A stretch of 64,000 nucleotides of DNA from Deltaproteobacteria bacterium (GTDB lineage Bacteria > Desulfobacterota > Binatia > DP-6): positions 35,845 through 99,844 of the forward strand of contig VBKF01000103.1 in the NCBI GenBank assembly GCA_005888095.1, written 5' to 3'. The position numbers and the translations under genes were made by a program. Each line of letters begins with the position of its first letter. Position 1 is the stretch's first letter. The notes under the pieces were generated by a model. That model did no database searches and was not told the DNA's origin. It was given only the letters and a program-made list of their open reading frames with translations. Shown here piece after piece: positions 175 through 53,557 of the stretch.

Positions 175-192
175 CCGAGCGGCTCCCCGCCC

Positions 193-7471: not shown

Positions 7472-7694
7472 GACTGTATGGACCCCGCCGTTTCCCGTGG
7501 GCCCAGGCGTTCGGCCCGCTGGTGGCTCAGCACTCCCCCGTGGTCAATTCCACGCGAACGCCAGTCGTGCGAGCGATCGTTCTTTGGTTCGTTTAGCCGC
7601 GGGCTGCACAGATTGTCAAGGCACGCGGGGACACCATCGTCGTGCCGCCGCAATTCGTTGACTCGTCTGCGCTTATCCGTTAGCGCAATCGCAG

Positions 7695-15909: not shown

Positions 15910-16632
15910 TTACGCCGACGCCGTGACGCCGATCCGCGGGCACCACTCGGCCACGGGGCAGACGCTGCAGCGGGGCTTCCGCGCCACGCACACGCGGCGG
16001 CCGTGGTGGATCAGGCGGTGTGCGAACCGCGTCCACTCCTTCGGCGGCAACAGCTCGCGCAGGTTGGCCTCGATCTTGTCGGGGTCGTCGTTCGTCGTGA
16101 GCCCGAGCCGACCGGCCAGGCGCCGCACGTGCGTGTCGACGAAGATGGCCGGCTGGCCGAAGGCGGTGCCGAGGACGACGTTCGCGGTCTTCCGCCCCAC
16201 CCCGGGGAGCGCGCAGAGCTCCTCCATCGTCTGCGGCACCCGTCCTTCGTGCCGCTCGACGAGGATGCGCGCCACCGCCTGGAGCGCCTTCGCCTTCTGG
16301 CGAAAGAACCCGGTCGGCTTGACGATCGCCTCGAGCGCATCCCCGGGCGCGGCGGCCAGCTCTTGCGGGCCCGGATACTCGGCGAACAGACGCGGCGTCA
16401 CCTGGTTCACCATCGCGTCGGTGCACTGCGCCGAGAGGATGGTCGCCACCAGCAGCTGCCACGGGTTCTGGTAGTGGAGCGCGCACCACGCGTCCGGATA
16501 GGCGCGTGCCAGGCGGCGCGCGATCTGGCGAGCCCGCGCGCGACGCCTCTCCCGGCTCTCGCGTGCGACGTTCAGTCGGGGAGACGGCTTGGCGGCGGGC
16601 TTCCGGGACGGTCGCGGCGACTTCAGCGCCAC
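15910..16632 (-). CDS. nth: endonuclease III (DNA glycosylase/AP lyase)
   Basis: HhH-GPD motif LPGVGRKTANVVL and a 4Fe-4S cluster loop (CxxxxxxCxxC...C: CVARKPRCSVCPVAEWC). Start inferred at a GTG that overlaps glpD by 10 nt; there is no in-frame ATG. Confidence 0.8.
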   Translation of the reverse strand: MALKSPRPSRKPAAKPSPRLNVARESRERRRARARQIARRLARAYPDAWCALHYQNPWQLLVATILSAQCTDAMVNQVTPRLFAEYPGPQELAAAPGDALEAIVKPTGFFRQKAKALQAVARILVERHEGRVPQTMEELCALPGVGRKTANVVLGTAFGQPAIFVDTHVRRLAGRLGLTTNDDPDKIEANLRELLPPKEWTRFAHRLIHHGRRVCVARKPRCSVCPVAEWCPRIGVTASA

Positions 16633-18269
16633 CGCCGGCGGCCCTCTTCCACCACCGCGGCATAGCTCTCCGCAGCGGCGCGCGCGGCCTCGGGCGTCCA
16701 GCCGAGCGGTCCCGCCATCAACGCGGCCACCTCCCCGGCCGCCTTGACGCCCTCGCTCTCCTCGCGCAGCGAGATCTGCGTGCGGCGGCGGAGCACGTCC
16801 TCGACGGTCAGCGCGCCCTCGCGCTCGACGGCCTCGAGCACCTCGGCGCGCGGGTCGGGAAGCGTCGGGACGATCGGGTCGGCGAGCCGGCGGTCGGCCG
16901 CGACGAGATGCAGCACCTCGCCCGCTCGGCTGCCGTAGCGGTCGGCCAGGTGGCCGATCACCGGGGGCGCAAGCCCGTTGCCGTCGCGCGACAGGACCGC
17001 CGCCGCCACCGAGTCCGGCGGCGCCGCCCCGCCCGGCAGCGGCACTGTGCCCGTCCGGCAGCGGCCGAAGCGGCGCTGGTCGCCGCCCCGGCGGAGCGCG
17101 TCGATCACGCGCTCGACGACCGCCGCCGCCACCAGCCGATGGGTCGTGAGCTTGCCGCCCGCGATCGAGATCAGACCCGAGGGCGAGGCGAAGATCTCCT
17201 CCTCGCGCGACACGCTGGAGGGCGCCACCGCGGCGCCGGCGGGCGGCGCGATCAGCGGCCGGAGCCCGGCGAAGGCGCTGGTCACATCCTCCCGCGAGAG
17301 ACGGGCGGCCGGGAAATAGTGGTTCACCGTTTCCAGCAGGTAGGTGACGTCGGCCGCCTCGACGACGGGCGGGACGTCGGGACCGCCCTCGTGGTCGGTG
17401 TCGGTGGTGCCGACCAGCGTCTGCTCCTGCCACGGGATGACGAACATCACGCGGCCGTCCTTGACGGCGTGCAGCACGACCGCCGCCCGGTTGCCGACCC
17501 GCGCCCGGGGGACGAGGACGTGCACCCCCTTGGTCAGCCGCAGCCGCGCCGGCGCCGGTGCGTCGAGGGCCGCCACGGTGTCCACCCACGGGCCGGTCGC
17601 GTTGACGACGACGCGGGCCCGGACGCTCACCTCCCCGCCCCCGAGCCGGTCGACCAGCCGTGCGCCGGCGAGCCGGCCGTCCTCCTTGAGAAGCGCCGCC
17701 ACGCGCGCGTACGACACCGCGACGGCGCCCTCGCGCCCCGCGGCGAGGATCGTCTCGAGGACGAGCCGCGCGTCGTCGGTGCGGCAGTCCCAGTAGCACC
17801 CGGCGCCCCGCAGACCCTCCGTCCGCAAGGCAGGCTCGGCCTTCCGTGTGGCGCGCGCCGAGAGCATGCGATGGCGATGGACGTTCCACAGGCCGGCCAT
17901 GAGATCGTATGCCCAGAGCCCGGCAGCGAGCTTGAATCTCCCGACCGGACCGTCTTCGTACACCGGGAAGATGAACTCCTGCGGGCGCACGAGGTGCGGC
18001 GCGAGCCGCCGCAGCCGCTCGCGCTCGCGGCACGCCTCGAGGACCAGCCGGACATCGCCCTGCTCGAGGTACCGGAATCCTCCGTGGATCAGCTTCGAGG
18101 ACCGGCTCGAGGTGCCCGAGGCGAAGTCCGCATGCTCGACGAGCGCCGTCCGGAGGCCGCGCATGGCGGCGTCGCGCGCGATCCCTGCGCCGTTGATGCC
18201 GCCGCCGATGACGAGGAGGTCGAAGGTCTCGCTGCCGAGCCGGGCGAGCGCCGCGCTGCGCGGGGTCAC
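16623..18269 (-). CDS. glpD: FAD-dependent glycerol-3-phosphate dehydrogenase
   Basis: N-terminal FAD fold DLLVIGGGINGAGIARDAA and the GlpD signature SSRSSKLIHGGFRYL. Confidence 0.85.
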   Translation of the reverse strand: MTPRSAALARLGSETFDLLVIGGGINGAGIARDAAMRGLRTALVEHADFASGTSSRSSKLIHGGFRYLEQGDVRLVLEACRERERLRRLAPHLVRPQEFIFPVYEDGPVGRFKLAAGLWAYDLMAGLWNVHRHRMLSARATRKAEPALRTEGLRGAGCYWDCRTDDARLVLETILAAGREGAVAVSYARVAALLKEDGRLAGARLVDRLGGGEVSVRARVVVNATGPWVDTVAALDAPAPARLRLTKGVHVLVPRARVGNRAAVVLHAVKDGRVMFVIPWQEQTLVGTTDTDHEGGPDVPPVVEAADVTYLLETVNHYFPAARLSREDVTSAFAGLRPLIAPPAGAAVAPSSVSREEEIFASPSGLISIAGGKLTTHRLVAAAVVERVIDALRRGGDQRRFGRCRTGTVPLPGGAAPPDSVAAAVLSRDGNGLAPPVIGHLADRYGSRAGEVLHLVAADRRLADPIVPTLPDPRAEVLEAVEREGALTVEDVLRRRTQISLREESEGVKAAGEVAALMAGPLGWTPEAARAAAESYAAVVEEGRRRWR

Positions 18270-18467
18270 ACGTGGATTCTACCGAGCCCCCGATCCCATG
18301 TCACGGCGCGTCACCGCCAGCTGCTGTCGCTCGGACAGCACCCCGCCGGAGCTCGACTCGAGATCGAATCTCCGCGCGCGCCGCGCGCGCGGCCGAGCGA
18401 AGCGAGCGGGGAGTGAGGACCCGGCGGGCTCCGCCCGACGGGGCGAGGGGCGGAGCCCCTCGCTGAT

Positions 18468-20253: not shown

Positions 20254-21582
20254 TTAGCACGTGGCACGCAGAGTCACCACCACGTCGGCGACGTTCGTGC
20301 CCGTCGGTCCCGTGCGCACGAGATCGCCGGCGGCGTCGAGCAGCGGATGGCTGTCCGTGCGGGCCAGCGCGGCCGCGGGGTCGAGACCGCGCGCTCGCGC
20401 GCGCCCGGCCGTCTCGCCGTCGACGCAGGCGCCCGCGGCGTCGGTCGGGCCGTCGACGCCGTCGGTGCCGGCCGCGAGCAGGACGGCGGGCTCGCCGGCG
20501 AGTGCGATGGCCGCGGCGAGCGCGAGCTGCTGGCAGCGCCCGCCGCGGCCATCCGGCACGACGCGAACCGTGGTCTCCCCGCCCGCGACGATCGCCTGCG
20601 GCCGGTCGCGGGGCGAGGCGGCGAGCCGAGCGGCGATGGCGCGCCCGGCACTGGCCGCGTCGCCGCTGAGCGCCGCCGGGAAGACGGTCGTCGCGTAGCC
20701 GTGCAGCTCCGCCGCGCGCGCGGCCGCCCCGAGCGCGTCGCGGTTGCCGCCGACCAGGAGCAGCCGTGTCCGCGCGCAAACGGGCTCCCCGGGCTTGACG
20801 GTTTCCGGCACGCGGCCCGCGAGGCCGCGCTCCAGGTGCCGCTGGACGGCGGCCGGCACGTCCTCGGGTGCGAGGAAGCGGGCGACCACGCGGGCCGCGT
20901 CGGCGAACGTGGTCGGATCCGGCACCGTCGGCCCCGAGCCGATGGTCGCCGGGTCGTCGCCGACCACGTCGGAGAGAACGAGGGTCCAGACGCCCGCCGC
21001 GCCGGCGGCGGCGCGCAGGAGACCCCCGCCCTTCACCTGCGAGCAGTGCTTGCGGACGGTGTTCAGCGCCTCGATGTCCGCGCCCGCGAGGAGGAGCCCG
21101 CGCGTCACCTCCTGCTTGTCGCAAAGGTCGAGGCCGGGCGCGGGCGCGACCAGCAACGCCGACGCGCCGCCCGCGAGCACGACGAGGACGACTGTCGAGC
21201 GGTCGGCTGTAGCGACCACCTCCAGGAGCCGTCGCGTCGCCGCCTCGCCCGTCGCGTCCGGCACGGGATGCGCTCCGGCGGCGACCGTGACACCGCCGAT
21301 GGGCGACAGGTCGCTCCCGTGGGGTACGATCACGATCCCACCGTGCAGCGCCTGTCCCGCCGCACGCGCCACCGCCTCGGCCATGCTCCGCGCCGCCTTG
21401 CCCGCGCCGACCACAAGCACCGGCCCCGCATGGCGCGCCGTCACGGCCGCCCCCGGTGCACCGAGGCACAGCGTGTCGTCGACGCGGCGCAGACGCGCGC
21501 TGACGAGCCGCCCGGGATGCACCGCCTCGACCGCCGCGCGCCAGCACTCGAGTGCGTCCCGGCGCATCTCGGCAAGCGTCAT
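20254..21582 (-). CDS. glycerate 2-kinase (MOFRL family; hydroxypyruvate reductase-like)
   Basis: 442 aa with the MOFRL pattern (VLVVGAGKAA, LAGGETTV, GTDGVDGPTD). Confidence 0.85.
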   Translation of the reverse strand: MTLAEMRRDALECWRAAVEAVHPGRLVSARLRRVDDTLCLGAPGAAVTARHAGPVLVVGAGKAARSMAEAVARAAGQALHGGIVIVPHGSDLSPIGGVTVAAGAHPVPDATGEAATRRLLEVVATADRSTVVLVVLAGGASALLVAPAPGLDLCDKQEVTRGLLLAGADIEALNTVRKHCSQVKGGGLLRAAAGAAGVWTLVLSDVVGDDPATIGSGPTVPDPTTFADAARVVARFLAPEDVPAAVQRHLERGLAGRVPETVKPGEPVCARTRLLLVGGNRDALGAAARAAELHGYATTVFPAALSGDAASAGRAIAARLAASPRDRPQAIVAGGETTVRVVPDGRGGRCQQLALAAAIALAGEPAVLLAAGTDGVDGPTDAAGACVDGETAGRARARGLDPAAALARTDSHPLLDAAGDLVRTGPTGTNVADVVVTLRATC

Positions 21583-21645
21583 GGCGGCTGGCCTCGCCGC
21601 CCGCTTCTGGACCTCCCCCGGGCCCGCCGCCTATAAGGCTCTACC

Positions 21646-28574: not shown

Positions 28575-30242
28575 TTACATCTCCATGACGAAGGGGAGGA
28601 TCACGGGACGGCGGTCGAAACGCTTGAAGTACCGCCGGAGCGCCTTGCGGACCTCCTCCTTCACCTCGGCGGGGTCGGTCCGCGACTCGGGGTTGATCGC
28701 TGCCAGCGCGTCCAGGACCACCCCCCGTGCCCGCTCGAGGATCTCGGGGCTCGCCTCCTCGGTCACGACCCCGCGCGAGATGAGGTCGGGCCCGGCGACG
28801 ATCTCGCCCGACTGCTGCGCGATCGCCAGGACGGCGAGCACGAGGCCGTCCTCGGAGAGATGGCGCCGGTCGCGCAGGACCTCGTCCTCGACGTCGCCGA
28901 TCCCCTTGCCGTCGACGAAGACGCGCCCCGCGGTCACCCGCTCGCGGCGGCGCGCGACGCCCGCCGCGTCGAGCTCCAGCACGTCGCCGTCCTCGAGCAG
29001 GTGGCACGATTCGGGAGGGATGCCCACCTCCTCGGCCAGCCGAACGTGACGGACGAGGTGGCGGTACTCGCCGTGCACGGGGATGAAGTGGCGCGGCCGG
29101 ACGAGGTTCAGGACGAGCTTCAGCTCCTCCTGCGAGGCATGGCCCGAGACGTGCACCGCGGCCGTGCGACCGTAGTGCACGACGGCGCCGCGCCGGTAGA
29201 GATGGTTCACGAGGCTCGAGATCGCGCGCTCGTTGCCCGGGATGATGCGCGAGGAGAGGATCACCGTGTCCCCGGGCTCCAGCGTCACCTGCTTGTGGGC
29301 GTCCATCGCGATCCGCACCAGGGCGGATGCCGCCTCGGCCTGGCTGCCGGCGGTGATGATCACCACCCGATGGCGCGGCAGGTCGCGGGCGCTGCCGGTG
29401 TCGACGAGCGTCCCGTCGGGGATCGCGAGGTGCCCGAGGTCGCGCGCGATGGCGGTGTGCACGCCGAGGCTGCGGCCGACGAACGCGACGCGCCGGCCGA
29501 AGCGGACCGCCAGGTCGATCACCTGCTGCATGCGATGGATGTGCGAGGAGAAGGTCGTCACCAGGATGCGGCCGGTCGCCTGGCGGAAGATCGTGTCGAA
29601 CTCCGTGCCGACCGACCGTTCCGACGGCGTCACGCCGGCGTGCTCGACGTTGGTCGAGTCGGAGAGCAGGAGCAGCGCGCCCTCGGCGCCGAGCTCGCCG
29701 AGTCGGACGAGGTCGGGCAGCCGCCCGTCGAGCGGGGTCTGATCGAGCTTGAAGTCTCCCGTGTGGACGACGGTGCCGACCGGCGTGCGGATCGCGAGCC
29801 CGACCGAGTCCGGGATGGAGTGGGTCATCGCGATGGGTTCGACCGCGAAGGGGCCGACGCGGCAGGGCTCGACGTCGTAGAGGAGCAGCGGGGCCGAGAG
29901 GCCGCGCTCGCCGAGCCGCTCGCGGACGAAGCCCAGGGTGAGCCTCGTGCCGTAGACGGGGACCGGCCGCTCGCCGAGCACGTACGGCAGCGCGCCGATG
30001 TGGTCCTCGTGCCCGTGGGTCAGGAAGATCGCCTGGAACCGTTCGCCGAGGCCGCGGATGTACGTGATGTCCGGGATCGCGACGTCGATGCCGAGCATCC
30101 GCTCGTCCGGGAACATGACGCCGCAGTCGACGGCAATCGCCGCGTCCCCGTACTCGAGGACGAGCAGGTTGAGGCCGATCTCGCCGAGGCCGCCGAGCGG
30201 GATGACCCGCAGCGGCGTACCCGCGCCGTTCCCCCCCTTCAC
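28575..30242 (-). CDS. rnj: ribonuclease J (metallo-beta-lactamase/beta-CASP)
   Basis: HxHxDH motif FLTHGHEDHIGALP, beta-CASP and the RNase J C-terminal domain. Confidence 0.9.
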   Translation of the reverse strand: MKGGNGAGTPLRVIPLGGLGEIGLNLLVLEYGDAAIAVDCGVMFPDERMLGIDVAIPDITYIRGLGERFQAIFLTHGHEDHIGALPYVLGERPVPVYGTRLTLGFVRERLGERGLSAPLLLYDVEPCRVGPFAVEPIAMTHSIPDSVGLAIRTPVGTVVHTGDFKLDQTPLDGRLPDLVRLGELGAEGALLLLSDSTNVEHAGVTPSERSVGTEFDTIFRQATGRILVTTFSSHIHRMQQVIDLAVRFGRRVAFVGRSLGVHTAIARDLGHLAIPDGTLVDTGSARDLPRHRVVIITAGSQAEAASALVRIAMDAHKQVTLEPGDTVILSSRIIPGNERAISSLVNHLYRRGAVVHYGRTAAVHVSGHASQEELKLVLNLVRPRHFIPVHGEYRHLVRHVRLAEEVGIPPESCHLLEDGDVLELDAAGVARRRERVTAGRVFVDGKGIGDVEDEVLRDRRHLSEDGLVLAVLAIAQQSGEIVAGPDLISRGVVTEEASPEILERARGVVLDALAAINPESRTDPAEVKEEVRKALRRYFKRFDRRPVILPFVMEM

Positions 30243-31051
30243 GTCGCCTCCGCGACGCGGCGCCCGGTCTCGAGCCCCGCCGGGGCGGGGAGATGCTCGA
30301 GCATGAAGCTCCGTACGCGCCGGATGAGCTCGTCGCGGTCCACACCCGCCGCCGGGATCGGACGGCCCACGACGACCTCGATGTCGCCCGCGGCCACCCG
30401 CCAGGCGCGTCTCGGCAGGACCTTGTCGCTGTCACGCACGACCATGGGGACGATCGGGACTCCGGTGTCGAGCGCCATCATGAAGCCGCCCTTCTTGAAC
30501 CGCAAAAGCGTGTCGCGGGGCGTGGCACGGGTACCCTCGGGGAAGATCATGACCGAGATGCCCTCGCGCATCCGCAGCTCGGCCGCACGCAGGCTCCGGA
30601 CCGCCTGCGTGCTGTCGCTCCGGTCGATGATGATGTGGCCGGATCGCCTGAGCGCCCAGCCGAACACCGGGACGCGCGTCAGCTCGACCTTGGCCACCCA
30701 GCGGAGCTGGTACTCCGGCAGCGCAGCGATCACCGCGAGGACGTCGAACTGGCTGCGGTGGTTCGACATGAAGACGTAGGGCGTCTGCGGGTCGAGCGGG
30801 GCGAGCCGCCGCGTTCGCACGCGCACGCCGCAGGCCAGGAGGTTGATCCGGACCCAGAGCCGGCAGAGTCGATACGCTGCCCGCTCGTCGAACAGGGCGA
30901 CGGCGACCACGCTCAGCGCACAGACGACCGTGTTGAGCCCGACGCAGATCAGCTTGAGGATCGAAACCAGGATCACGACCCGTTTCTCACCCCGCCGCCG
31001 CGAACCCCTCCCGGCCTGGATCGCCGCCGCAACTAGCGTACATCCGAACAT
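30239..31051 (-). CDS. plsC: 1-acyl-sn-glycerol-3-phosphate acyltransferase
   Basis: N-terminal TM helix, acyltransferase NHxxxxD motif (FMSNHRSQFDVLA) and PEGTR motif. The exact start (ATG 31051 or an internal GTG) is uncertain. Confidence 0.75.
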   Translation of the reverse strand: MFGCTLVAAAIQAGRGSRRRGEKRVVILVSILKLICVGLNTVVCALSVVAVALFDERAAYRLCRLWVRINLLACGVRVRTRRLAPLDPQTPYVFMSNHRSQFDVLAVIAALPEYQLRWVAKVELTRVPVFGWALRRSGHIIIDRSDSTQAVRSLRAAELRMREGISVMIFPEGTRATPRDTLLRFKKGGFMMALDTGVPIVPMVVRDSDKVLPRRAWRVAAGDIEVVVGRPIPAAGVDRDELIRRVRSFMLEHLPAPAGLETGRRVAEAT

Positions 31052-31111
31052 ACCGGGGCGCAGCCGCGCAAGTCAACGTGGAGAAGGAGCGCTGTGTGCG
31101 CGGCTTGCCGT

Positions 31112-45137: not shown

Positions 45138-45977
45138 TCACCCCTCCCCGATCCAGCGGTCGAACCAGGCGTCGAGCATCTCGACCACCGCCGCCCGCTC
45201 GGCCGGCGGCTCGTTCAGCAGCTCGTGGTAGTAGCCGCGCAGCATGACCAGCTCGTGCACGCAGGTGAGATGAGCGGCGACCTCGGCGGCCGCCGTGGGG
45301 TCGACGATCCGGTCGGCGTCGCCCTGGAGGATCAGGAGCGGCGGGCTGAGCCGCGCCGCCTCCGCGCGCACGACCGCCTGCGCGGCGAGCACGGCGCGGT
45401 AGAAGCCGGCGCTCGCCCGCCGGTGCACGAGGGGATCGGCGACGTACGCCGCGCCCACCGCCGGGTCGCGCGACAGGAGCCGTTCGTCGAGGTTCGAGCG
45501 CAACCCGACGCCGGGCGCCACCCGCCCGAGCGACAGGGCGATCATCTGCAACGAGCGCGGCGCGGCGTCCGGCACGCGGAAGGCGGGCGCTGAAAGCGCC
45601 CCGGCGCGCATCGTTTCCGGGTGGCGTAACAGATACAGGAACGCGATGAGGCCGCCCATGCTGTGGCCGAAGAGGAGGCGCGGCACGCCCGGCCACCAGC
45701 CCTCTGCGAGGTCCGCGAGCGTGCGGAGATCGGCCACGAACTCGGCGAACGTCCGGCAGTGCCCGCGGGGCCCGCCCGACCGTCCGTGCCCACGATGATC
45801 GACCGCTGCCGCCGCGAACCCGCGTCCGGTGAGATGTGCGACGAACTCGCGGTAGCGCCCGAGGTGCTCCGCGTACCCGTGCGCGATCAGGACGACGCCG
45901 CGCGGGGGGCGGGGCGCGGGAGCGGACCGCTGATAATAGATCTGGACCCCGCCGGCACCGGCGAAGGTCCCGTCCAT
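45138..45977 (-). CDS. alpha/beta hydrolase (lysophospholipase / monoacylglycerol-lipase-like)
   Basis: 279 aa; HGYAEHLGRY ... GHSMGG nucleophile elbow ... C-terminal His. Start at MDGTFAG, 8 nt after the glpK stop. Confidence 0.75.
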   Translation of the reverse strand: MDGTFAGAGGVQIYYQRSAPAPRPPRGVVLIAHGYAEHLGRYREFVAHLTGRGFAAAAVDHRGHGRSGGPRGHCRTFAEFVADLRTLADLAEGWWPGVPRLLFGHSMGGLIAFLYLLRHPETMRAGALSAPAFRVPDAAPRSLQMIALSLGRVAPGVGLRSNLDERLLSRDPAVGAAYVADPLVHRRASAGFYRAVLAAQAVVRAEAARLSPPLLILQGDADRIVDPTAAAEVAAHLTCVHELVMLRGYYHELLNEPPAERAAVVEMLDAWFDRWIGEG

Positions 45978-45985
45978 CCCGCCGG

Positions 45986-47479
45986 TCACGCGGGCGCCGG
46001 CTGGCTCCGCACGCGCGCCACCGCGTCCCGCCAGCCCTGGTAGAGCGCGTCGCGCGCGTCGGGCGCCATGCGCGGCCGGAAGCGTCGGTCGATCCGCCGG
46101 GCGCGGGAAAGGTCCGCCTGCGAGCGCCAGAAGCCCGTCGCCAGGCCGGCGAGAAAGGCGGCGCCCATGGCCGTCGTCTCGACCACGCGCGGCCGGTCGA
46201 CCGGCACGCCCAGCACGTCGGCCTGGAACTGCATGAGGAAGTCGTTGGCCGCCGCCCCGCCGTCCACCCGGAGCGCCCGCAGCGACTCGCCGGCATCGGC
46301 CGCCATGGCGTCGGCGACGTCGCGCGTCTGGTAGGCGAGCGCCTCGAGCGCCGCGCGCACGACGTGGGCGCGCGTCACGCCGCGCGTGAGGCCGAGGAGC
46401 GCGCCCCGCGCGCCGGCGTCCCAGTGCGGGGCGCCGAGGCCGACGAAGGCCGGGACGAGGTAGACGCCGAGGGTCGAGTCGACGCTCTTCGCGAGCCGCT
46501 CCGACTCCGCGGCGCGCTTCACGAGCCCGAGGCCGTCGCGCAGCCACTGGATGGCCGCGCCGGCGATGAAGACCGAGCCCTCGAGCGCGTAGGCCGGGGC
46601 GCCGGCGGCGTCGCAGGCGACGGTGGTGAGCAGCCCGTGCTCCGAGGCGACCGGCCGGGCACCCGTGTTCAGGAGGAGAAAGCAGCCCGTCCCGTAGGTG
46701 TTCTTCGCCATCCCCGGCTCGACGCAACCCTGGCCGAAGAGCGCCGCCTGCTGGTCGCCCGCGATGCCGGCGATCGGGATCGGCGCGCCGAGGACGTCGG
46801 CCGTCGTGGTGCCGAACTCGCCGCTCGACGGCCGCACGACGGGCAGCACGGCCGTCGGCACGTCGAGGAGCGTGCACATCTCCCCGTCCCACGCACGCGC
46901 GTGGATGTCGTAGAGGAGCGTGCGCGAGGCGTTGGTCGGGTCGGTGGCGTGCACTGCCCCGCCCGAGAGCTTCCACACCAGCCAGGAGTCGATCGTGCCG
47001 AAGCAGAGCTCGCCCTCGGCCGCGCGCTCGGCCGCCCGTGCGACGTTCTCCAGCAGCCAGCGCAGCTTGGTGCCGGAGAAGTAGGGGTCGAGGACGAGGC
47101 CCGTCTTCTGGCGCACGCGGGCCTCGAGGCCGCGCGCTCTCAGCTCCTCGCAGAGCGGCGCCGTGCGGCGGTCCTGCCAGACGATTGCCCGATGCACGGG
47201 GCGGCCCGTGCGGCGGCTCCAGAGGACCGTCGTCTCGCGCTGGTTCGTGATGCCGAGCGCCCGGACGTCGCGGCCGCGCGCGCCCGCCCGCCGGCACGCC
47301 TGGCGCAGCACGCGAAGCGTCACCTGCCAGATCTCCTCCGCATCGTGCTCCACCCACCCGGGCCGCGGATAGTGCTGCGTGAACTCGGAATAGGCGCGGC
47401 CGACCACGCGCCCCAGGCGGTCGAAGACGAGCACGGTCGACCCCGTCGTGCCCTGATCGACCGCGACGACGTAGGGCAT
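45986..47479 (-). CDS. glpK: glycerol kinase
   Basis: [12 protein letters not shown]...[12 protein letters not shown]...[12 protein letters not shown], the FGGY kinase/GlpK signatures. Confidence 0.9.
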
Positions 47480-47481
47480 CC

Positions 47482-48504
47482 CTAGCCGAGGAAGATCGCG
47501 CGGCGGCGGCGCACACCCTCGCTCACCAGCGCCTGCAGGCGCTCGCGCACCTGGTCGCGGACGCGCAGCACGGTCCGCGGATCGCGCGCCGCTTCGGGCG
47601 GGTGCTGCGCGGCGACGTCGAGGGGCTCGCCCACGTGGAGCGTCCACTTGGTCGGCAGCGGCAGGAGGCCGGCGGGCCCGAGCCAGGGGAAGGTCGGCGT
47701 GATGGGGAGGGTCGGGAGGCCGAGCCAGCGCCCGACGGTGTCCAGGCGCCAGAGCACGGGCTGGCTCTCCTCCGTGCCGACGACCGCCACGGGGATGATC
47801 GCCGCGCCGGTCTCGAGCGCGACGCGCGCGAAGGCGGCGCGCCCAAAGCCCGCGAGACGGTACCAGCGACGCCGGCTCTTGGCGCATGCCTCGCGTCCCT
47901 CGGGCTGGACGATCACGGCCTCGTCGCGCTCGAGCAGGCGCCGCATCACGCCCGGCGTGGCGCGGAGCGCGCCGAGGGCGCTCCCGAGACGCAGCCGGAC
48001 CACCCAGTCGTCGACCAGCGGCCACGCCATGCGGCCGGCCGGATGGTCGATGGCGAGCGCCACCGCGACCATGAGCGCCTCGTAGGGGAGCAGGATCCCG
48101 GCGCGATTGACCACTAGCAGCACCCGGCCGCGTGCCGGTACGCGCTCGAGCCCCACCGTGTCGACCCGCCACCACAGCCGGTAGAACGTGCGCAGCAGCG
48201 TGGCGCCGACCAGGTCGGCGCCGAGGCCGCGGCGCAGGCTCGCATACGCCGCGAGCAGCTCGTCGAGCGCGGCCTCGAGGGCCTGGCGGCCGGCTCGCCC
48301 CGGAGTCGCGTGCCCGGCGAGCGCCGCATCGATCTCGCGCTCGAGCGCGCCGAGCCGGTCGCCCAACAGCCGCCCGGCGGGCGCCGCCGGCGCGTGACGC
48401 ACGCGCCGTTCGCGCACGACACGCAGGTGCCGCATCGCGGACTCGGACAGAGGGCTCGCCGGCTCGCGGCGATCGCGCTCGTCCGGTCGATCGGCGTCGG
48501 ACAC
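47482..48504 (-). CDS. lysophospholipid/glycerolipid acyltransferase (PlsC-like)
   Basis: 340 aa with acyltransferase-type motifs (VNRAG..LPYE region, and EGREA resembling the xEGxR block); weaker than plsC above. Forms an operon with glpK and the lipase-like gene. Confidence 0.65.
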
Positions 48505-48533
48505 GTGGGAAAGCTAGGAGACGCCCAGGCGCG

Positions 48534-48562
48534 TGTCAAATTGGACGGCGTGCAAATTGACA
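48534..48562. promoter_or_regulatory. repeat element TGTCAAATTG-N7-TGCAAATTGACA upstream of the ArsA-like ATPase pair; contains a consensus -35 TTGACA followed 18 nt later by TATGAC
   Basis: Read directly from the sequence. This is an AT-rich island in a GC-rich intergenic region between divergent operons (acyltransferase-glpK on the minus strand, the ATPases on the plus strand). Confidence 0.4.
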
Positions 48563-48592
48563 CTTCGCGCGCGCCGCAGCTATGACCGTGAC

Positions 48593-49528
48593 GTGCCGGC
48601 CCGCCTGCCGCTCGCCGCCCAGCGACTGGTGATCGTCACGGGCAAGGGTGGCGTCGGCAAGAGTGCCGTGACCGCCGCTCTCGCGCGCGCCGCCGCCGGT
48701 GCAGGGCGGCGGGTGCTCGCGGTGGAGGTGGCGCGCGGCGGCCTCGGTCCGCTGCTCGGCGGGCGCCCGCTCGGGTCGGCCCCCGTGCTCGTCGCCCCCA
48801 GGCTCCGGGCGACGGCGCTCGAGCCCGAGGAGGCGCTCGGCGACTTCGTGCACGGCATCCTGCGCTTCCGCGTGCTGGCCCGCCGCCTGCTCGAGAGCAC
48901 GTCGTTCCAGGTCCTCGCCGCGGCGGCGCCGGGGCTGCCGGAACTCCTGGTGCTGCACCGGCTGCTCGGCTGGGTGGAGGAGCGCCGGCTCGGCCGGCGC
49001 GCCTACGATCTCGTGCTCGTCGACGCGCCCGCGTCGGGCCACTCGCTGCCGCTCCTCGCCGCGCCACGTACCCTCGGGACGCTCGCGCGCTTCGGCCCGG
49101 TCGCCCAGGTGCTCACGAAGATCCGTGCGCTCCTCACCGATCGCTCCCAAACGCTCGTCTGTCTTGTGACCACCCCCGACGAGCTCGCCGTGCGCGAGAC
49201 GATCGAGCTGCACCGCGAGCTTGCCGGACCGCTCGGACTGCCGGTCGCGCCGCCGATCGTGAACGCGCTCCCGCCGCGCCGCTTCGGTGCCGGCGACGAA
49301 GCAGCGCTCGCACGCCTGGAGGCCGCCGACGGCGAGCACCCCTATCTCGCCGCCGCCCGCTACCAGCTCGAGCGGCGGCGCCGCGCGCTCCGCCAGGTCA
49401 CCGCGCTTCGCCGGGCGCTTCACACCTCCGCCGTGTCGCTGCCCTTCCTGTTCGCCGGGCCGGAGGCGCCAGGAGGTATGGCGCGCCTGGCTGCCGATCT
49501 CGCGGCGGCCGCGGGCCTGGCGGCGTGA
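48593..49528 (+). CDS. ArsA/Get3-family P-loop ATPase (single-domain, first of a tandem pair)
   Basis: Deviant Walker A VTGKGGVGKS near the N-terminus; anion-transporting-ATPase family. Start uncertain: GTG 48593 is chosen because the GTG at 48533 lies inside the promoter-like repeat. Confidence 0.7.
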   Translation: MPARLPLAAQRLVIVTGKGGVGKSAVTAALARAAAGAGRRVLAVEVARGGLGPLLGGRPLGSAPVLVAPRLRATALEPEEALGDFVHGILRFRVLARRLLESTSFQVLAAAAPGLPELLVLHRLLGWVEERRLGRRAYDLVLVDAPASGHSLPLLAAPRTLGTLARFGPVAQVLTKIRALLTDRSQTLVCLVTTPDELAVRETIELHRELAGPLGLPVAPPIVNALPPRRFGAGDEAALARLEAADGEHPYLAAARYQLERRRRALRQVTALRRALHTSAVSLPFLFAGPEAPGGMARLAADLAAAAGLAA

Positions 49529-49535
49529 GCCGACG

Positions 49536-50657
49536 ATGACGCTCGACGGGATGCTCGCGGGGCGGCGCATCGTCTTCTGCGTCGGCAGCGGCGGCGTCGG
49601 CAAGACGACCACCGCGGCGGAGCTCGCCGTCGAGACGGCGCGGCGCGGACGGAAGACCGCCGTGCTGACGGTCGATCCCGCACCGCGCCTGAAGGACGCC
49701 CTCGGCCTCGACGCGCTCGATGCGCGCCCGCGGCGGGTCCCGCTCGGCGCGGGCGTCCATCTCGACGCCGTCCTCCTCGACGTCCGGCGCACCTTCGACG
49801 AGGTCGTCCGCGGGCTGGCGGCGACGCCCGAGCAGGCGAGCGCGGTGCTCGAGAACCGGCTCTACCAGAACCTGTCGGGCACGCTCGCGGGCACCGCCGA
49901 GTACACGGCGGTGGAGACCGTCTTCCGCCTGGCCGACGAGGGGGGCTACGACCTCCTGGTCGTCGACACGCCGCCCGCGCGCCACGTGGTCGACTTCCTC
50001 GACGCGCCGCGCCGGCTGCTCGCGCTCCTCGACTCGCGCGCCTTCGCGATCCTGAAGGACCCGAGCGTCATCCTGCCGGCGGCGGGCTCGCGGCTCGCGC
50101 ATCTCGTGCTGAGCGCGGTGCTGCGCGGCCTCGAGCGCTTCACGGGTCTCCAGCTGGTCCGCGAGGTGGGGGACTTCGTGCGCGCCATCGAGGCGTTGAC
50201 GGACGCGCTGCGCGCACGGGTCTCCGCCGCAGACGCGCTGCTGCGCGCCGAGGGCACGGCGCTCGTCCTCGTGACTGCGCCGGAGCCCCGGCTGGTGGAC
50301 GAGAACGCCCGGCTCGCCCACGCGCTCGCCGGGCTCGGCCTGCCGATCGGCGGCATCATCGTGAACCGCATGCTGCCGCGCGCGCTGTTCGCGCCCGGCG
50401 CGCCACCGCCGCCCGATGGCCTCCCCCCCGCGCTCGTCGCGCGCCTGCGGCGCGCGCACGCCGAGCTCGCCACCCTCGCCGCGCGCCAGGAGGCCGTCCT
50501 CCAGCCGCTCGTCGACGGCGCCGGCGCGCCCGTGCTGGCCGAGGTCCCACTGCTGCCGGGCGACCTCGGCTCGCTCGCCGACCTGGGCGTGATCGCGCGG
50601 CACCTCTTCCCCGCCCCGGCCGCCGCCCCACCCTCGGCCGGCCGGCTTGGCCGCTGA
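49536..50657 (+). CDS. ArsA/Get3-family P-loop ATPase (second of the tandem pair)
   Basis: MTLDGMLAGRRIVFCVGSGGVGKTT Walker A. It lies 7 nt after the first ATPase's stop and is the same family but divergent. Confidence 0.75.
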   Translation: MTLDGMLAGRRIVFCVGSGGVGKTTTAAELAVETARRGRKTAVLTVDPAPRLKDALGLDALDARPRRVPLGAGVHLDAVLLDVRRTFDEVVRGLAATPEQASAVLENRLYQNLSGTLAGTAEYTAVETVFRLADEGGYDLLVVDTPPARHVVDFLDAPRRLLALLDSRAFAILKDPSVILPAAGSRLAHLVLSAVLRGLERFTGLQLVREVGDFVRAIEALTDALRARVSAADALLRAEGTALVLVTAPEPRLVDENARLAHALAGLGLPIGGIIVNRMLPRALFAPGAPPPPDGLPPALVARLRRAHAELATLAARQEAVLQPLVDGAGAPVLAEVPLLPGDLGSLADLGVIARHLFPAPAAAPPSAGRLGR

Positions 50658-50663
50658 TGCCGG

Positions 50664-50999
50664 CTACTCCTGCGCCTCATGCCGCGTCGCGCCGGCGGGC
50701 TTGCGGCTCGTCCGCCGCCGCGGCTTGGTCGCCAGGAGGCGGTCCACCTTGAGGTTCAGGTTGACCAGGCTCCCCTGGATGGCCTCGAGCCTGGTGGCGA
50801 TGCGGGCCAGGTCGGCACGGGAAGGGAGGTTCAGCAGGCCGAGCACGGTCTGGACGTTCCGGTCGACGCGTCCCTTGGCCTCGAGCGCCGCCTGCACGGC
50901 GCGCCCGAACGCCTCCGTGAAGCGCGGACTCGCGAACAGGGTCGCGGCGAGCGTCCCGAGCGCTTCCCCACCGAGGCTGCACAGTCGCCTGACGATCAC
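50664..50999 (-). CDS. phasin-family / PHA-granule-associated protein (TIGR01837-like)
   Basis: About 111 aa; helical with VLGLLNLPSRADLARIATRLEAIQGSL and a basic C-terminal tail, typical of polyhydroxyalkanoate granule regulator/phasin proteins. GTG start after GGAGAGAGG; AT-rich promoter region upstream. Confidence 0.55.
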   Translation of the reverse strand: MIVRRLCSLGGEALGTLAATLFASPRFTEAFGRAVQAALEAKGRVDRNVQTVLGLLNLPSRADLARIATRLEAIQGSLVNLNLKVDRLLATKPRRRTSRKPAGATRHEAQE

Positions 51000-51122: not shown

Positions 51123-51383
51123 ATGACCGCCGCCGTCTTCCTCTCCTACTGGACCGGCCTGCGCTTCGTCGCGCCGGACCTCGACCCCGCCGCGCTCGTC
51201 GGGACGGCGCTTGCGCTGCACGTGTGCGACGCGATCATGTGCCGGCTCTTCGCGCACAACAACGGCTACCCGAAGACCCTGTGGACCGGGCTCGGCCTGG
51301 TCGCGGGGCTCTGGGCGGTCGCCGTCCTGATCCTGCTGCCGCGCCGCGGCGGGGCCCCTCCCCCGCCCGGGCGCCTGCCGTGA
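51123..51383 (+). CDS. small hypothetical membrane protein (86 aa)
   Basis: ATG with GAGGAAG 5 nt upstream; two hydrophobic helices and a non-biased composition. Confidence 0.4.
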   Translation: MTAAVFLSYWTGLRFVAPDLDPAALVGTALALHVCDAIMCRLFAHNNGYPKTLWTGLGLVAGLWAVAVLILLPRRGGAPPPPGRLP

Positions 51384-51396
51384 GAGTCTGTGCCGC

Positions 51397-51804
51397 TCAG
51401 CGGCCGGGGGAGCGCACGCCGCGGTCCTCGGCGATCACCGAGGCGACGGCGCTCGCCTCGCCGTGGCTGAGCGCGACGAGCCAGCGACGGATGCCCCGGC
51501 GGCGGGCGATGGCTGCGGCACGGCCGTGCAGGACGAGCGCCGGCGGGCCGGTCGGCGGCCGTACCACCTCGACGTCGAGCCATCGAACGCCGTCCGTCAA
51601 GCCTGTCCCGAGCGCCTTCATGGCCGCCTCCTTGGCGGCGAAGCGCGCCGCGTAGCTCGCGAAGCGACCCCGTCGCCGCTGCTCGCAGTACGCCTGCTCG
51701 GCCGGCGTGAAGATGCGGGCCTTGAAGCGCTCGCCGGTCGGCCGCTCCAGCGCCCGACGGATGCGCGCGATGTCGCAGACGTCGACACCGACCCCGACGA
51801 CCAC
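51397..51804 (-). CDS. acpS: holo-[acyl-carrier-protein] synthase
   Basis: VVGVGVDVCDIARI...KEAAMKALG, the 4'-phosphopantetheinyl transferase signature. Confidence 0.85.
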   Translation of the reverse strand: MVVGVGVDVCDIARIRRALERPTGERFKARIFTPAEQAYCEQRRRGRFASYAARFAAKEAAMKALGTGLTDGVRWLDVEVVRPPTGPPALVLHGRAAAIARRRGIRRWLVALSHGEASAVASVIAEDRGVRSPGR

Positions 51805-51811
51805 GGCTCCC

Positions 51812-53557
51812 TCAGCACGCGCCGCAGGTGTGGCAAGTCGCGGTGTCGCAGGGCGGCGTCTCGATCTCGGCGAGAGCCTTTCGCCGCTCGGCGGCGAGGT
51901 AACGCTTGTCCACCGAGTGATCGATGAAGTCCCACGGCAGCACGGCGTCGAGCGGATACGACCGGTGGACGAAGCGATCGGGGTCGACGGTCTCGCTCCC
52001 GCCGCCGCGGAGCCGCCTGAGCGTCGGCCACCAGGCGTCGGGCTCGGCCGCCAGACGCTCGAGGATCGCCGCCGTGCGCCGGTCGCCGCGCGAGAGCAGG
52101 GTCTGGAGATACGCCTCGCGCGGGCTCTCGACCTCGACCTGCACGCCCGGCATGGCGGCGAGCGCCCGGCCGAGTGCGGCGAGCTTCGCCCGGAGCGAGG
52201 GAATGGCCTCCATCGACTCCCACTGGAAGGGCGTCCACGGCTTCGGGACGAAGGGGTTGATCGAGACGAGGATGCGGCCGACCCGCGGCCGCCCGCCGGC
52301 CGCGAGACGCGCCCGCACCTTGGCGGTCAGGTCGACGATGCCGGCCACGTCCGCGGCGGTCTCCGTCGGCAGGCCGACCATGAAGTAGAGCTTCAGGCTC
52401 TCGACCCCGCTGCCGACCAGCCACTCGGCCGCGCGCAGGATCTCGGACTCGGTCAGGTTCTTGTTGACCACGCGCCGCATCCGCTCCGAGCCGGCCTCGG
52501 GCGCGACCGTGACCGAGCGGTTCCCGTTCCGGCCGAGCGCTGCGGCCAACGCCGGGGTGATCATGTCCGCCTTGAGCGAGGACGGCGACGCGCGGCCGCC
52601 CGCCTCGGCGACCTGCTGGCAGAGCGCCGCTACGCCGGGCAGGCTCGCCATCTCGGCGCCCACCAGGCCGATCGTCCTGCGCTCCTGAAGGCCGCGGGCA
52701 ACGCTCGCGCGGAGCGTCCCGAGGCTCCGGTAGCGGACCGGCCGGTACATGAACCCGGCCGCACAGAACCGACAACCCCACTCGCAGCCGCGGCTCGTCT
52801 CGACCAGGTACATGTCTCCGAACACGGCCTCGGGGGCCAGCACCTCGGAGTTGGTCGCGAAGCGATCGAGGTCGGCGACGAAGCGCCGGCGGACGCGCCC
52901 GTCCCCGGCACCGTGGTAGCTGACCGCGACCAGGTCGCCCTGCTCGTCGTACACCGGCGCATGGCGGTCCGGCCGGTACACCCCCGCCACGGCCTCCGTC
53001 CGCTCGAGGATCGCCTCGCGGCCGAGGGGACCCGCAAGGGCGCGGTCGAGGAACTCGCCCAGCATCTCCTCCGCCTCGCCGATCAGGAAGAGATCGACGA
53101 ACTCGGCCAGCGGCTCGGGATTGAGAAACGTCGCCGGCCCCCCTGCGATGACCAGCGGCGTGCGCGGGCCGCGCTCCCGACTCCGGAGCGGAATACCGGC
53201 CAGACGGAGACAGTGGAGGACGTTCAGGTAATCGCTCTCGAACGAGATCGAGAACGCCACCACGTCGAAGTCGCCGACGGAGCGGTCCTGCTCGAAGGAC
53301 CGCAGCGTACGCGGCCACGCGGCGCGCTCGCCGTCGGCCAGGAAGGCCCGGTCACAGGCGACGCGCGCATCCTCGGACAGGAGCCGGAGCACGGCCTGGA
53401 AGCCGAGGTTCGCCATCCCGACCGGATACGTGTTCGGGTAGACCAGACACACCGACAGCGGACCGCTCGGGCCCGGAGCGAAGAGCCTGCGCTCCGCGGC
53501 CAGGCGGGCGAGACGGCGGTCGTCCAGTCGAGGCATCGTCAGGGGTCGATACTGCAT
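51812..53557 (-). CDS. B12-binding-domain radical SAM protein (large, uncharacterised family)
   Basis: About 581 aa; N-terminal B12-binding-like domain (LSVCLVYPNTYPVGMANLGFQ), radical-SAM cluster ETSRGCEWGCRFCAAG, and a Cys-rich C-terminus (CDTATCHTCGAC). Start at ATG MQYRPL. Confidence 0.75.
   Translation of the reverse strand: MQYRPLTMPRLDDRRLARLAAERRLFAPGPSGPLSVCLVYPNTYPVGMANLGFQAVLRLLSEDARVACDRAFLADGERAAWPRTLRSFEQDRSVGDFDVVAFSISFESDYLNVLHCLRLAGIPLRSRERGPRTPLVIAGGPATFLNPEPLAEFVDLFLIGEAEEMLGEFLDRALAGPLGREAILERTEAVAGVYRPDRHAPVYDEQGDLVAVSYHGAGDGRVRRRFVADLDRFATNSEVLAPEAVFGDMYLVETSRGCEWGCRFCAAGFMYRPVRYRSLGTLRASVARGLQERRTIGLVGAEMASLPGVAALCQQVAEAGGRASPSSLKADMITPALAAALGRNGNRSVTVAPEAGSERMRRVVNKNLTESEILRAAEWLVGSGVESLKLYFMVGLPTETAADVAGIVDLTAKVRARLAAGGRPRVGRILVSINPFVPKPWTPFQWESMEAIPSLRAKLAALGRALAAMPGVQVEVESPREAYLQTLLSRGDRRTAAILERLAAEPDAWWPTLRRLRGGGSETVDPDRFVHRSYPLDAVLPWDFIDHSVDKRYLAAERRKALAEIETPPCDTATCHTCGAC

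Follow-up and report, generated by a model that had tools for sequence, protein, structure and literature searches.

In Mycobacterium tuberculosis, the single-domain ATPases BagA (Rv3679) and BagB (Rv3680) are encoded by adjacent genes, their structure has been solved (PDB 6BS3) and, to our knowledge, neither a client nor a mechanism has been described for them. The pair is reportedly unlikely to transport anions, a conclusion said to go back to Hu et al. in 2019. A passage of PMC10597346 that cites Whitaker et al. 2020 states that bagAB is implicated in protecting M. tuberculosis from the toxicity of glycerol metabolism and of nitric oxide. We analysed a 64-kb stretch of contig VBKF01000103.1 (the window, meaning the whole stretch, to which all coordinates refer), in which a distant relative of this pair is encoded divergently from a three-gene unit containing glpK. 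Literature searches on Rv3680 with glycerol and methylglyoxal, and on Binatota with polyhydroxyalkanoate (PHA), added nothing useful. A sequence-only reading of the locus had pointed to the mycobacterial link to glycerol and nitric oxide, in agreement with the passage cited above, and had taken the position of an ATPase pair beside glpK as an echo of it. We find that its BagAB identification is right, that the glpK echo is genuine but clade-limited, and that its readings of an acyltransferase and of a common regulator site need revision. The nearest named homologues of three proteins of the locus belong to metagenome-assembled genomes (MAGs) named 'Candidatus Binatia' or 'Deltaproteobacteria bacterium', and the host is a member of Candidatus Binatia, not an actinobacterium; the same locus is present on two ENA metagenome contigs (L001 and L002).

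Because the window has a G+C content of 73%, raw lists of its open reading frames (ORFs) consist mostly of shadow ORFs, and genes were called from third-position GC profiles combined with translations, resulting in five tightly packed genes. The plus strand carries a bagA-like gene (48593..49528, 311 amino acids) followed by a bagB-like gene (49536..50657, 373 amino acids), with a junction reading TGA-GCCGACG-ATG that leaves 7 nucleotides between them. The minus strand carries, in the order of transcription, the gene for a PlsC-like protein of the LPLAT fold (47482..48504, 340 amino acids), glpK (45986..47479, 497 amino acids) and the gene for a monoacylglycerol-lipase-like alpha/beta hydrolase (45138..45977, 279 amino acids), with junctions reading TAG-GG-ATG (2 nucleotides) and TGA-CCGGCGGG-ATG (8 nucleotides), respectively. 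All features pointed out from the sequence alone were recovered by third-position GC and translation at the same coordinates, including the P-loops VTGKGGVGKS of the BagA-like and VGSGGVGKTT of the BagB-like protein, and the gaps of 2, 8 and 7 nucleotides are exact in the junction sequences. No tRNA gene or Rfam family was found within the locus.

Both ATPases matched Pfam PF02374 (ArsA_ATPase), with 61.6 bits for the BagA-like and 100.5 bits for the BagB-like protein. Their top NCBIfam models were ATPase BagA (NF053622, 108 bits with a cut-off of 400) and ATPase BagB (NF053621, 271 bits with a cut-off of 521), respectively. Comparison with the PDB separated the two subunits in the same way. 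The BagA-like protein had its best match in chain A of 6bs3 (Rv3679; 80 bits, E = 1.5e-21) and reached 49 bits with chain B, whereas the BagB-like protein matched chain B (Rv3680) best and over its full length (209 bits, E = 1.4e-60, 39% identity), with a runner-up of 87 bits and only 41 bits for chain A. Judged by the gaps in score to ArsA and Get3, these chain-specific best matches and the top NCBIfam models bear out the proposed kinship with Rv3679/Rv3680. The locus resembles that of M. tuberculosis in having two adjacent single-domain ATPase genes, with A preceding B, and in a connection to glycerol, which is a reported phenotype in M. tuberculosis and a genomic link here. By contrast, the relationship is distant (39% identity for BagB) and extends to another phylum (Binatia) at scores below the equivalog level. 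With both scores under the NCBIfam cut-offs, the pair is filed as BagAB-like at the level of the family and not as equivalogs.

The two subunits appear to share out the catalytic residues of a single site between them. In the BagA-like protein, the P-loop GKGGVGKS contains the signature lysine and the position of the Get3 switch-I DPA motif reads EVA. By contrast, the BagB-like protein has a P-loop without the signature lysine (GSGGVGKT) and keeps a DPA switch I. The same asymmetry is seen in printed alignments of Rv3679 (GKGGTGKS, EVE) and Rv3680 (GAGGVGKT, DPA), both pairs thus having GKGGxGKS without DPA in A and G[SA]GGVGKT with DPA in B. To follow the family further, a genome scan with a BagB alignment was used, which returned 80 loci in Binatia, Myxococcota, Actinomycetota (Solirubrobacterales and others), Acidobacteriota and other groups. 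The asymmetry was present in 51 of 51 BagA-like and 58 of 59 BagB-like proteins of these loci, spanning Binatia, Myxococcota, Acidobacteriota and Actinomycetota. In this class of ATPases, as established for MinD, NifH and Get3, the signature lysine works in trans, on the other side of the interface between the two subunits. The switch-I aspartate (D57 in yeast Get3) activates the attacking water (PMC10248533). Given that the signature lysine occurs only in A and the switch-I aspartate only in B, the motifs predict a single composite ATP site, in which BagA would provide the lysine in trans and BagB the pocket with its switch-I aspartate, and only this BagB composite site would be fully catalytic. 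The BagA-like protein is thus probably the non-catalytic and the BagB-like protein the catalytic subunit of a heterodimer that is predicted by homology. The pair has the fold family, the deviant Walker A motif and the switch I and II regions in common with Get3/TRC40 (TIGR00345, 67 and 85 bits with a cut-off of 135). By contrast, Get3 forms homodimers that bind zinc through CxxC and whose two ATP sites are equivalent, whereas the pair described here is a heterodimer by homology, lacks CxxC and would have one of its sites degenerate. A receptor resembling Get1/2 was not identified.

On the minus strand, the second and third genes fit the glycerolipid turnover and glycerol assimilation unit that had been proposed for this operon. 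GlpK is canonical, with 708 bits on TIGR01311 (cut-off 590), 764 bits on NF000756 and both FGGY_N (PF00370) and FGGY_C (PF02782) detected. The hydrolase matched PF12146 (Hydrolase_4) with 236.5 bits and contains a GHSMGG nucleophile elbow. In the PDB it came closest to Rv0183, the monoglyceride lipase of M. tuberculosis, which it matched over the full length (6eic; 166 bits, E = 1.3e-47); further monoacylglycerol lipases and human MGLL (110 bits) came next, so that the lipase-like hydrolase of the sequence-only reading can be specified as monoacylglycerol-lipase-like. The likeness to Rv0183 and MGLL extends to the full-length match, the Hydrolase_4 domain and the GxSxG motif. The substrate is a prediction and may also be a lysophospholipid, since the named NCBIfam models that came nearest were those for phospholipase BipL and lysophospholipase L2, although the protein scored far under the cut-off of each. 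A route from monoacylglycerol through glycerol to glycerol-3-phosphate is therefore predicted and well supported by family membership, which leaves the lipase and GlpK parts of the proposed unit standing; the acyltransferase step is doubtful. Downstream of the operon, rpmE appears to have its own promoter.

The first gene of the operon had been read as an LPLAT acyltransferase. Its product scored 18.6 bits on PF01553 (cut-off 23) and covered profile positions 83-131 only, which is the C-terminal part. A sequence search of the PDB brought up nothing above noise, and relatives were therefore sought by way of a predicted structure. An AlphaFold (AF2) model built from an alignment of 55 homologues (predicted local distance difference test score 79.7) was matched by Foldseek to PlsC (5kym), PatA (5f2z), plant GPAT (1k30) and LpxM, with E-values down to 1.3e-6 and a probability of 1.00. 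Judged from this model, the protein has the LPLAT (AGPAT) fold. The catalytic His in motif I (HX4D), however, is replaced by Arg, a replacement seen in 103 of 110 full-length homologues with the other 7 having His, and an acylation step thus cannot be assumed. In part of the Arg clade motif III is eroded as well, and the His-type relatives give end-to-end matches to PF01553 with 53-67 bits. Compared with PlsC/AGPAT enzymes (Thermotoga maritima PlsC 5KYM and PatA 5F2Z), the protein shares the predicted fold, motif IV (IPVAVVG) and a PEG motif, but it has Arg for the HX4D His, more residues between this position and the acidic one, an additional Pro/Gly-rich insertion without charges and a Pfam score below cut-off. 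This uncharged segment follows motif IV, is nearly invariant in the LPLAT-like family and is absent from a canonical PlsC encoded elsewhere in the window (30242-31072, minus strand; PF01553, 103.7 bits), in which NHRSQFD and FPEGTR are intact. The canonical plsC has its own TTGACT promoter at 31076. Taken together, the fold of the earlier assignment holds, whereas the missing catalytic His and the PF01553 score below cut-off speak against the enzymatic part, and the LPLAT-like protein is probably not a housekeeping acyltransferase, a lipid- or membrane-bound partner or sensor being more likely. Most members of the Arg-type clade are publicly annotated as '1-acyl-sn-glycerol-3-phosphate acyltransferase'. 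For this clade (103 of the 110 sampled), the 'PlsC' or acyltransferase label is probably a mis-annotation.

Beyond bagB, a gene on the minus strand (50664..50999) encodes a 111-amino-acid coiled-coil protein with a basic tail, which was recognised with a family hidden Markov model (HMM) and through PF05597 matches in its relatives. The window protein itself scored 20.8 bits on the PhaE C-terminus (PF09712) and 15.9 bits on Phasin (PF05597, cut-off 28.8), both below cut-off, while 11 of 14 family members matched PF05597 at E-values up to 0.1, the best being 4.2e-6. With a score under the PF05597 gathering threshold, the protein is filed as phasin-like only. It resembles phasins (PF05597; PhaF/PhaP and the C-terminal region of PhaE) in being a short amphipathic coiled coil with an LNLPSRxD...L motif and, as in PhaF, a basic tail. 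The Binatia proteins end in Arg/Lys/Pro-rich tails, and in the homologue of locus L082 the tail is long and rich in Lys, Ala and Pro, like that of PhaF-type phasins. By contrast, the window member stays below the Pfam thresholds and has no PHA synthase nearby, and its binding to granules is putative. Between the phasin-like family and the C-terminus of the Myxococcota PhaR-like proteins described below, only a weak local profile match was obtained (probability 24%, E = 8e-4), and no homology is claimed. A sigma-70-like promoter of its own is predicted for the phasin-like gene at 51101-51074. The gene is convergent with bagB, with 6 nucleotides between the stop codons (50655-50666), and a scan of 44.8-51.6 kb detected no intrinsic terminators; with so small a gap and no terminator, the two transcripts probably overlap.

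Neighbours of bagAB were counted in the 80 loci by tblastn, HMM searches and clustering of ORFs. At the tblastn threshold, the bagA-bagB tandem was present in 20 of 20 evaluable loci of Binatia, 34 of 37 of Myxococcota and other groups, 4 of 4 of Acidobacteriota and 5 of 13 of Actinomycetota. The LPLAT-like gene lies divergent from bagA in 15 Binatia loci, down to 39% identity and with the His-type in deeper Binatia lineages, and it lies downstream and convergent in 5 Myxococcota MAGs. By the family HMM, the phasin-like gene was found in 39 of the 80 loci, including 22 of 22 evaluable Binatia loci, where it is convergent with bagB, and 17 Myxococcota loci (among them Myxococcus, Corallococcus and Anaeromyxobacter), where it is usually upstream and divergent from bagA. 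The reverse test gave the same association, with 3 of 3 phasin-like homologues on long contigs adjoining bagB-bagA. A PhaR-like regulator gene (PF07879, 92 bits) also occurs in 17 Myxococcota loci. In six loci of deeper Binatia lineages (L014, L015, L016, L023, L024 and L025), a second LPLAT-like paralogue of the His-type (NHSGTLPFD) was observed 3-4 kb from bagAB, at ~3.5-4.4 kb on the plus strand in the numbering of the respective locus. Taxon labels in the public records are inconsistent, the Binatia-type loci L011, L012 and L016-L018 being labelled Limnocylindria, Thermodesulfobacteriota or Polyangiaceae.

The intergenic region between the two units contains the inverted repeat TGTCAAATTG-N7-TGCAAATTGACA with a perfect TTGACA (48534..48562, strandless), which had been noticed earlier and taken to suggest a site for a common regulator. 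The repeat 10-mer, with at most 1 mismatch, occurs twice in the 64 kb with 0.12 occurrences expected, both of them here, and the repeat can be extended to 15-nucleotide arms (48533-47 and 48549-63) that are 87% complementary (13 of 15). Given that plus-strand TGTCAA reads TTGACA on the opposite strand, the arms can be taken as two outward-facing, back-to-back −35 boxes with A/T-rich flanks. The predicted promoter of the LPLAT-like/glpK/lipase unit (48511..48539, minus strand) would then consist of TTGACA (reverse complement of 48534-48539), a 17-nucleotide spacer and TAGCTT (reverse complement of 48511-48516), followed after 6 nucleotides by GTG at 48504. The predicted bagA-bagB promoter (48557..48586, plus strand) would consist of TTGACA (48557-48562), a spacer of 17 or 18 nucleotides and CTATGA/TATGAC (48580-48586), followed after 6-7 nucleotides by GTG at 48593. 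In the window, the two −35 hexamers are 17 bp apart. Across the 64 kb there are only 8 occurrences of TTGAC[AT], all of which closely precede a gene or a ZMP riboswitch.

The layout of both promoters recurs in relatives. A bagA promoter of the form TTGnnn, 16-18 nucleotides, TAnnnN, with the start codon 6-13 nucleotides further on, was recognised by eye in each of 18 Binatia loci inspected and in L085. For the LPLAT-like gene, the promoter layout was compared in 9 relatives, of which 8 (L003, L004, L006, L009, L010, L013, L016 and L017) have the start codon 6-9 nucleotides past the −10 box, with L085 having it 32 nucleotides past. The public gene caller places the start of bagA at GTG 48533 (331 amino acids) and that of the LPLAT-like gene at ATG 48435 (317 amino acids). 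Both are probably wrong, as judged from the N-termini of homologues and the conserved promoter layout, with GTG 48593 and GTG 48504 as the likely starts; the nearly invariant M1 in the LPLAT-like alignment fits the latter. Since the start codons lie only 6-7 nucleotides past the −10 boxes and match conserved N-termini, both mRNAs are probably leaderless. The distance between the two boxes across Binatia is 17, 17, 19, 17, 10, 20, 1 and ~44 nucleotides. Conservation of the boxes with a spacing that varies from 1 to ~44 nucleotides disfavours a fixed common operator. A pair of divergent −35 hexamers, each with A/T-rich sequence upstream, is the best reading of the repeat, in place of the common regulator site suggested before.

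We propose that two divergent units are fired from back-to-back sigma-70-type promoters. The rightward unit would produce a heterodimeric ATPase of the BagA/BagB type and the Get3/ArsA fold, a distant relative of Rv3679/Rv3680 with the composite site described above. The leftward unit would salvage glycerolipid head groups, with the lipase freeing glycerol and GlpK converting it to glycerol-3-phosphate, as family membership suggests. Linkage of bagAB to LPLAT-like and phasin-like genes across two phyla argues for a lipid-related role of BagAB, which most likely uses ATP to target, insert or release proteins that associate with lipid surfaces or membranes and control the flux of glycerolipids, with the LPLAT-like and phasin-like proteins as candidate partners or clients. 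In this scheme glpK and the lipase would be a recent, clade-specific addition to an older module, which they may have joined because it already handled glycerolipid flux. Such a role would account for the glycerol toxicity that follows the loss of bagAB in M. tuberculosis, and the published link to glycerol and nitric oxide is consistent with lipid handling without being proof of it. Taken as a whole, this combination of divergent units, composite-site BagAB, lipid-protein handling and recent acquisition of glpK and lipase is the explanation we lean towards, by a narrow balance. A bolder version is that BagAB is the engine of an unrecognised module for Get3-like targeting or quality control of monotopic or amphipathic proteins of membranes and lipid inclusions. 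Its clients may be the His-less LPLAT-fold protein, with its invariant hairpin-like Pro/Gly segment, and the phasin-like protein, with the PhaR-like protein as a possible regulator in Myxococcota. We regard this version as speculative and on present evidence rather unlikely.

Several observations weigh against the explanation we lean towards. Both ATPases miss the equivalog cut-offs of the BagA and BagB models, the client-handling mechanism of BagAB is one that we infer, and we know of no molecular function established for BagAB even in M. tuberculosis. Neither an LPLAT-like nor a phasin-like gene was found beside bagAB in the 14 Actinomycetota and 4 Acidobacteriota loci examined, so that the lipid link may not reach the mycobacteria, and the LPLAT-like, glpK, lipase and phasin-like neighbours of the window set it apart from the Actinomycetota loci altogether. 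A gene for a GlpD-type FAD glycerol-3-phosphate dehydrogenase (DAO and DAO_C; 16626-18278, minus strand) lies ~30 kb from glpK, as does one for a DUF4147/MOFRL glycerate-kinase-type protein (20257-21630, minus strand), so that the glycerol catabolic genes are dispersed and do not form one glp operon. A generic consensus promoter scan called neither of the divergent promoters because their −10 boxes are weak, with 3-4 of 6 positions matched. Finally, glpK stands beside bagAB in 0 of the 55 evaluable loci other than the close Binatia loci and in 4 of 61 overall, all within one Binatia sub-clade. In view of this last count, the adjacency might be a coincidence: with no functional relation to each other, bagAB and the operon with glpK would have come to share an intergenic region through a recent rearrangement in one Binatia lineage. 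The distribution of the glpK-lipase arrangement can be read in this way, because it is found near bagAB only in close relatives with BagB at least 69% identical, is missing at L007 and L008 (70% identical) and in the more distant Binatia (8 of 8 loci that could be evaluated), and does not occur at any locus of Myxococcota, Actinomycetota or Acidobacteriota; glpK of M. tuberculosis (Rv3696c) is presumably not adjacent to Rv3679/80 either. However, in 4 of the 6 close Binatia loci that could be evaluated (L003, L005, L009 and L010), as well as on two metagenome contigs, the LPLAT-like gene is followed by those for GlpK and the lipase, and the arrangement has persisted over considerable divergence (LPLAT-like 48-82% and GlpK 76-91% identity, in at least 6 independent assemblies). 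Moreover, glpK was inserted into the operon of an old neighbour gene of bagAB, and the only published BagAB phenotype, as far as the passage cited above goes, involves glycerol. The adjacency recurs in some relatives, contrary to the case named beforehand as refuting, its absence from all of them, and the echo of M. tuberculosis proposed for the pair beside glpK is a weak one, which holds as adjacency in this sub-clade and fails as a rule for the whole family. We consider mere coincidence to be unlikely, although far from negligible.

Other explanations concern the ATPases or the repeat. A split ArsA that powers an arsenite or antimonite efflux pump is suggested by the PF02374 match of both proteins and by the public annotation of relatives as 'ArsA family ATPase' or 'anion-transporting ATPase', and ArsA too has two non-equivalent halves. 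However, the ArsA model TIGR04291 gave 31 and 49 bits (cut-off 650) against 108 and 271 for the BagA and BagB models, and the Escherichia coli ArsA structure gave 43 and 54 bits against 80 and 209 for Rv3679/Rv3680. Besides, ArsA is a fused polypeptide with As(III)-binding cysteines encoded in ars operons, whereas each ATPase here has one Cys and thus neither the metalloid-binding Cys triad nor CxxC, and no arsB, acr3, arsR, arsC or arsD was found among the ~45 annotated ORFs of the window. On scores, cysteines and gene content we reject the split ArsA as extremely improbable; the grouping with bona fide ArsA beside ars genes, named earlier as the outcome that would overturn the BagAB assignment, is seen neither in the scores nor in the ORFs of the window. 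By analogy with PhaF, BagAB might instead position lipid or PHA inclusions in the manner of ParA/MinD, with the basic-tailed phasin-like protein as cargo adaptor. The linkage of phasin-like genes to bagAB in two phyla, the PhaR-like genes of Myxococcota, the PhaF-like Lys/Ala/Pro tail in L082 and the Arg/Lys/Pro-rich tails in Binatia would fit such a positioner. By contrast, the ATPases are far closer to Get3/ArsA than to ParA/MinD, neither a PHA synthase nor a wax-ester/triacylglycerol synthase was seen in the window, and the Phasin match of the window protein is sub-threshold, which makes a positioner quite improbable. As to the repeat, the 31-bp dyad (GTGTCAAATTGGACG-G-CGTGCAAATTGACAC) might serve as an operator at which a dimeric transcription factor controls the two units jointly. 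The dyad extends past the hexamers with 13 of 15 positions complementary, is unique within the window and is kept in the nearest relative, L003, where a flanking G...C pair has become C...G on both sides; CAAWT directly upstream of a −35 box is also confined to these two promoters in the window. However, past the closest relative only TGTCAA, TTGACA(C) and a few A/T bases are conserved, the variable distance between the boxes fits two independent promoters and not one rigid operator, and there is no regulator gene in the locus. A shared operator therefore seems doubtful to us, although a lineage-specific regulator may act on the dyad in the window and L003.

The remaining genes around the locus are of less direct concern. 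Next to the phasin-like gene, an 86-amino-acid, Binatia-specific membrane protein with two hydrophobic segments is encoded on the plus strand (51123..51383); the second segment lies near the C-terminus, the Kyte-Doolittle maximum is 2.19 (residues 53-75), and no Pfam match was obtained. A homologue lies within ~0.5 kb of bagB in 18 Binatia loci. The protein possibly belongs to the module, its membership being uncertain, and could conceivably be a small membrane client. It is followed by genes for a 4'-phosphopantetheinyl transferase (ACPS) and a B12-binding-type radical SAM protein (Radical_SAM_N2) at 51397-53557 on the minus strand, which are conserved downstream in many Binatia. A MazE/PemK toxin-antitoxin pair of the MazEF type (~53.7-54.4 kb; L001 12453-13011) lies between the radical SAM gene and ftsZ, and a partial dcw cluster (ftsZ, ftsA, ftsQ, murB, murC and further Mur ligase genes) extends from beside it to the end of the window. 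Elsewhere in the window, a ZMP/ZTP riboswitch (RF01750, 57 bits; 7494-7578, minus strand; promoter TTGACA at 7619) precedes genes for a class-V aminotransferase, a D-3-phosphoglycerate dehydrogenase and an adenylosuccinate synthetase on the same strand, and a protein of ~1086 amino acids (175-3432, plus strand) combines a zinc ribbon, an adenylate/guanylate cyclase domain, AAA_16 and TPR repeats.

The BagAB pair with its one-sided active site thus appears to be ancient and widespread, extending over Binatia, Myxococcota, Acidobacteriota and Actinomycetota. That glpK and a monoacylglycerol lipase have been joined to bagAB in one lineage provides independent genomic support for the glycerol connection. 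The locus adds a new distant relative of BagAB, and its chief value lies in the candidate partners it offers for these ATPases: the LPLAT-fold and phasin-like proteins, encoded by the most persistent neighbours in two phyla, are concrete candidates, and the phasin-like gene also occurs beside bagAB in the culturable Myxococcus. If the bolder version is true, a module that handles lipid-surface proteins and thereby controls the entry of glycerol-3-phosphate into glycerolipids would explain the glycerol toxicity seen in bagAB mutants of M. tuberculosis.

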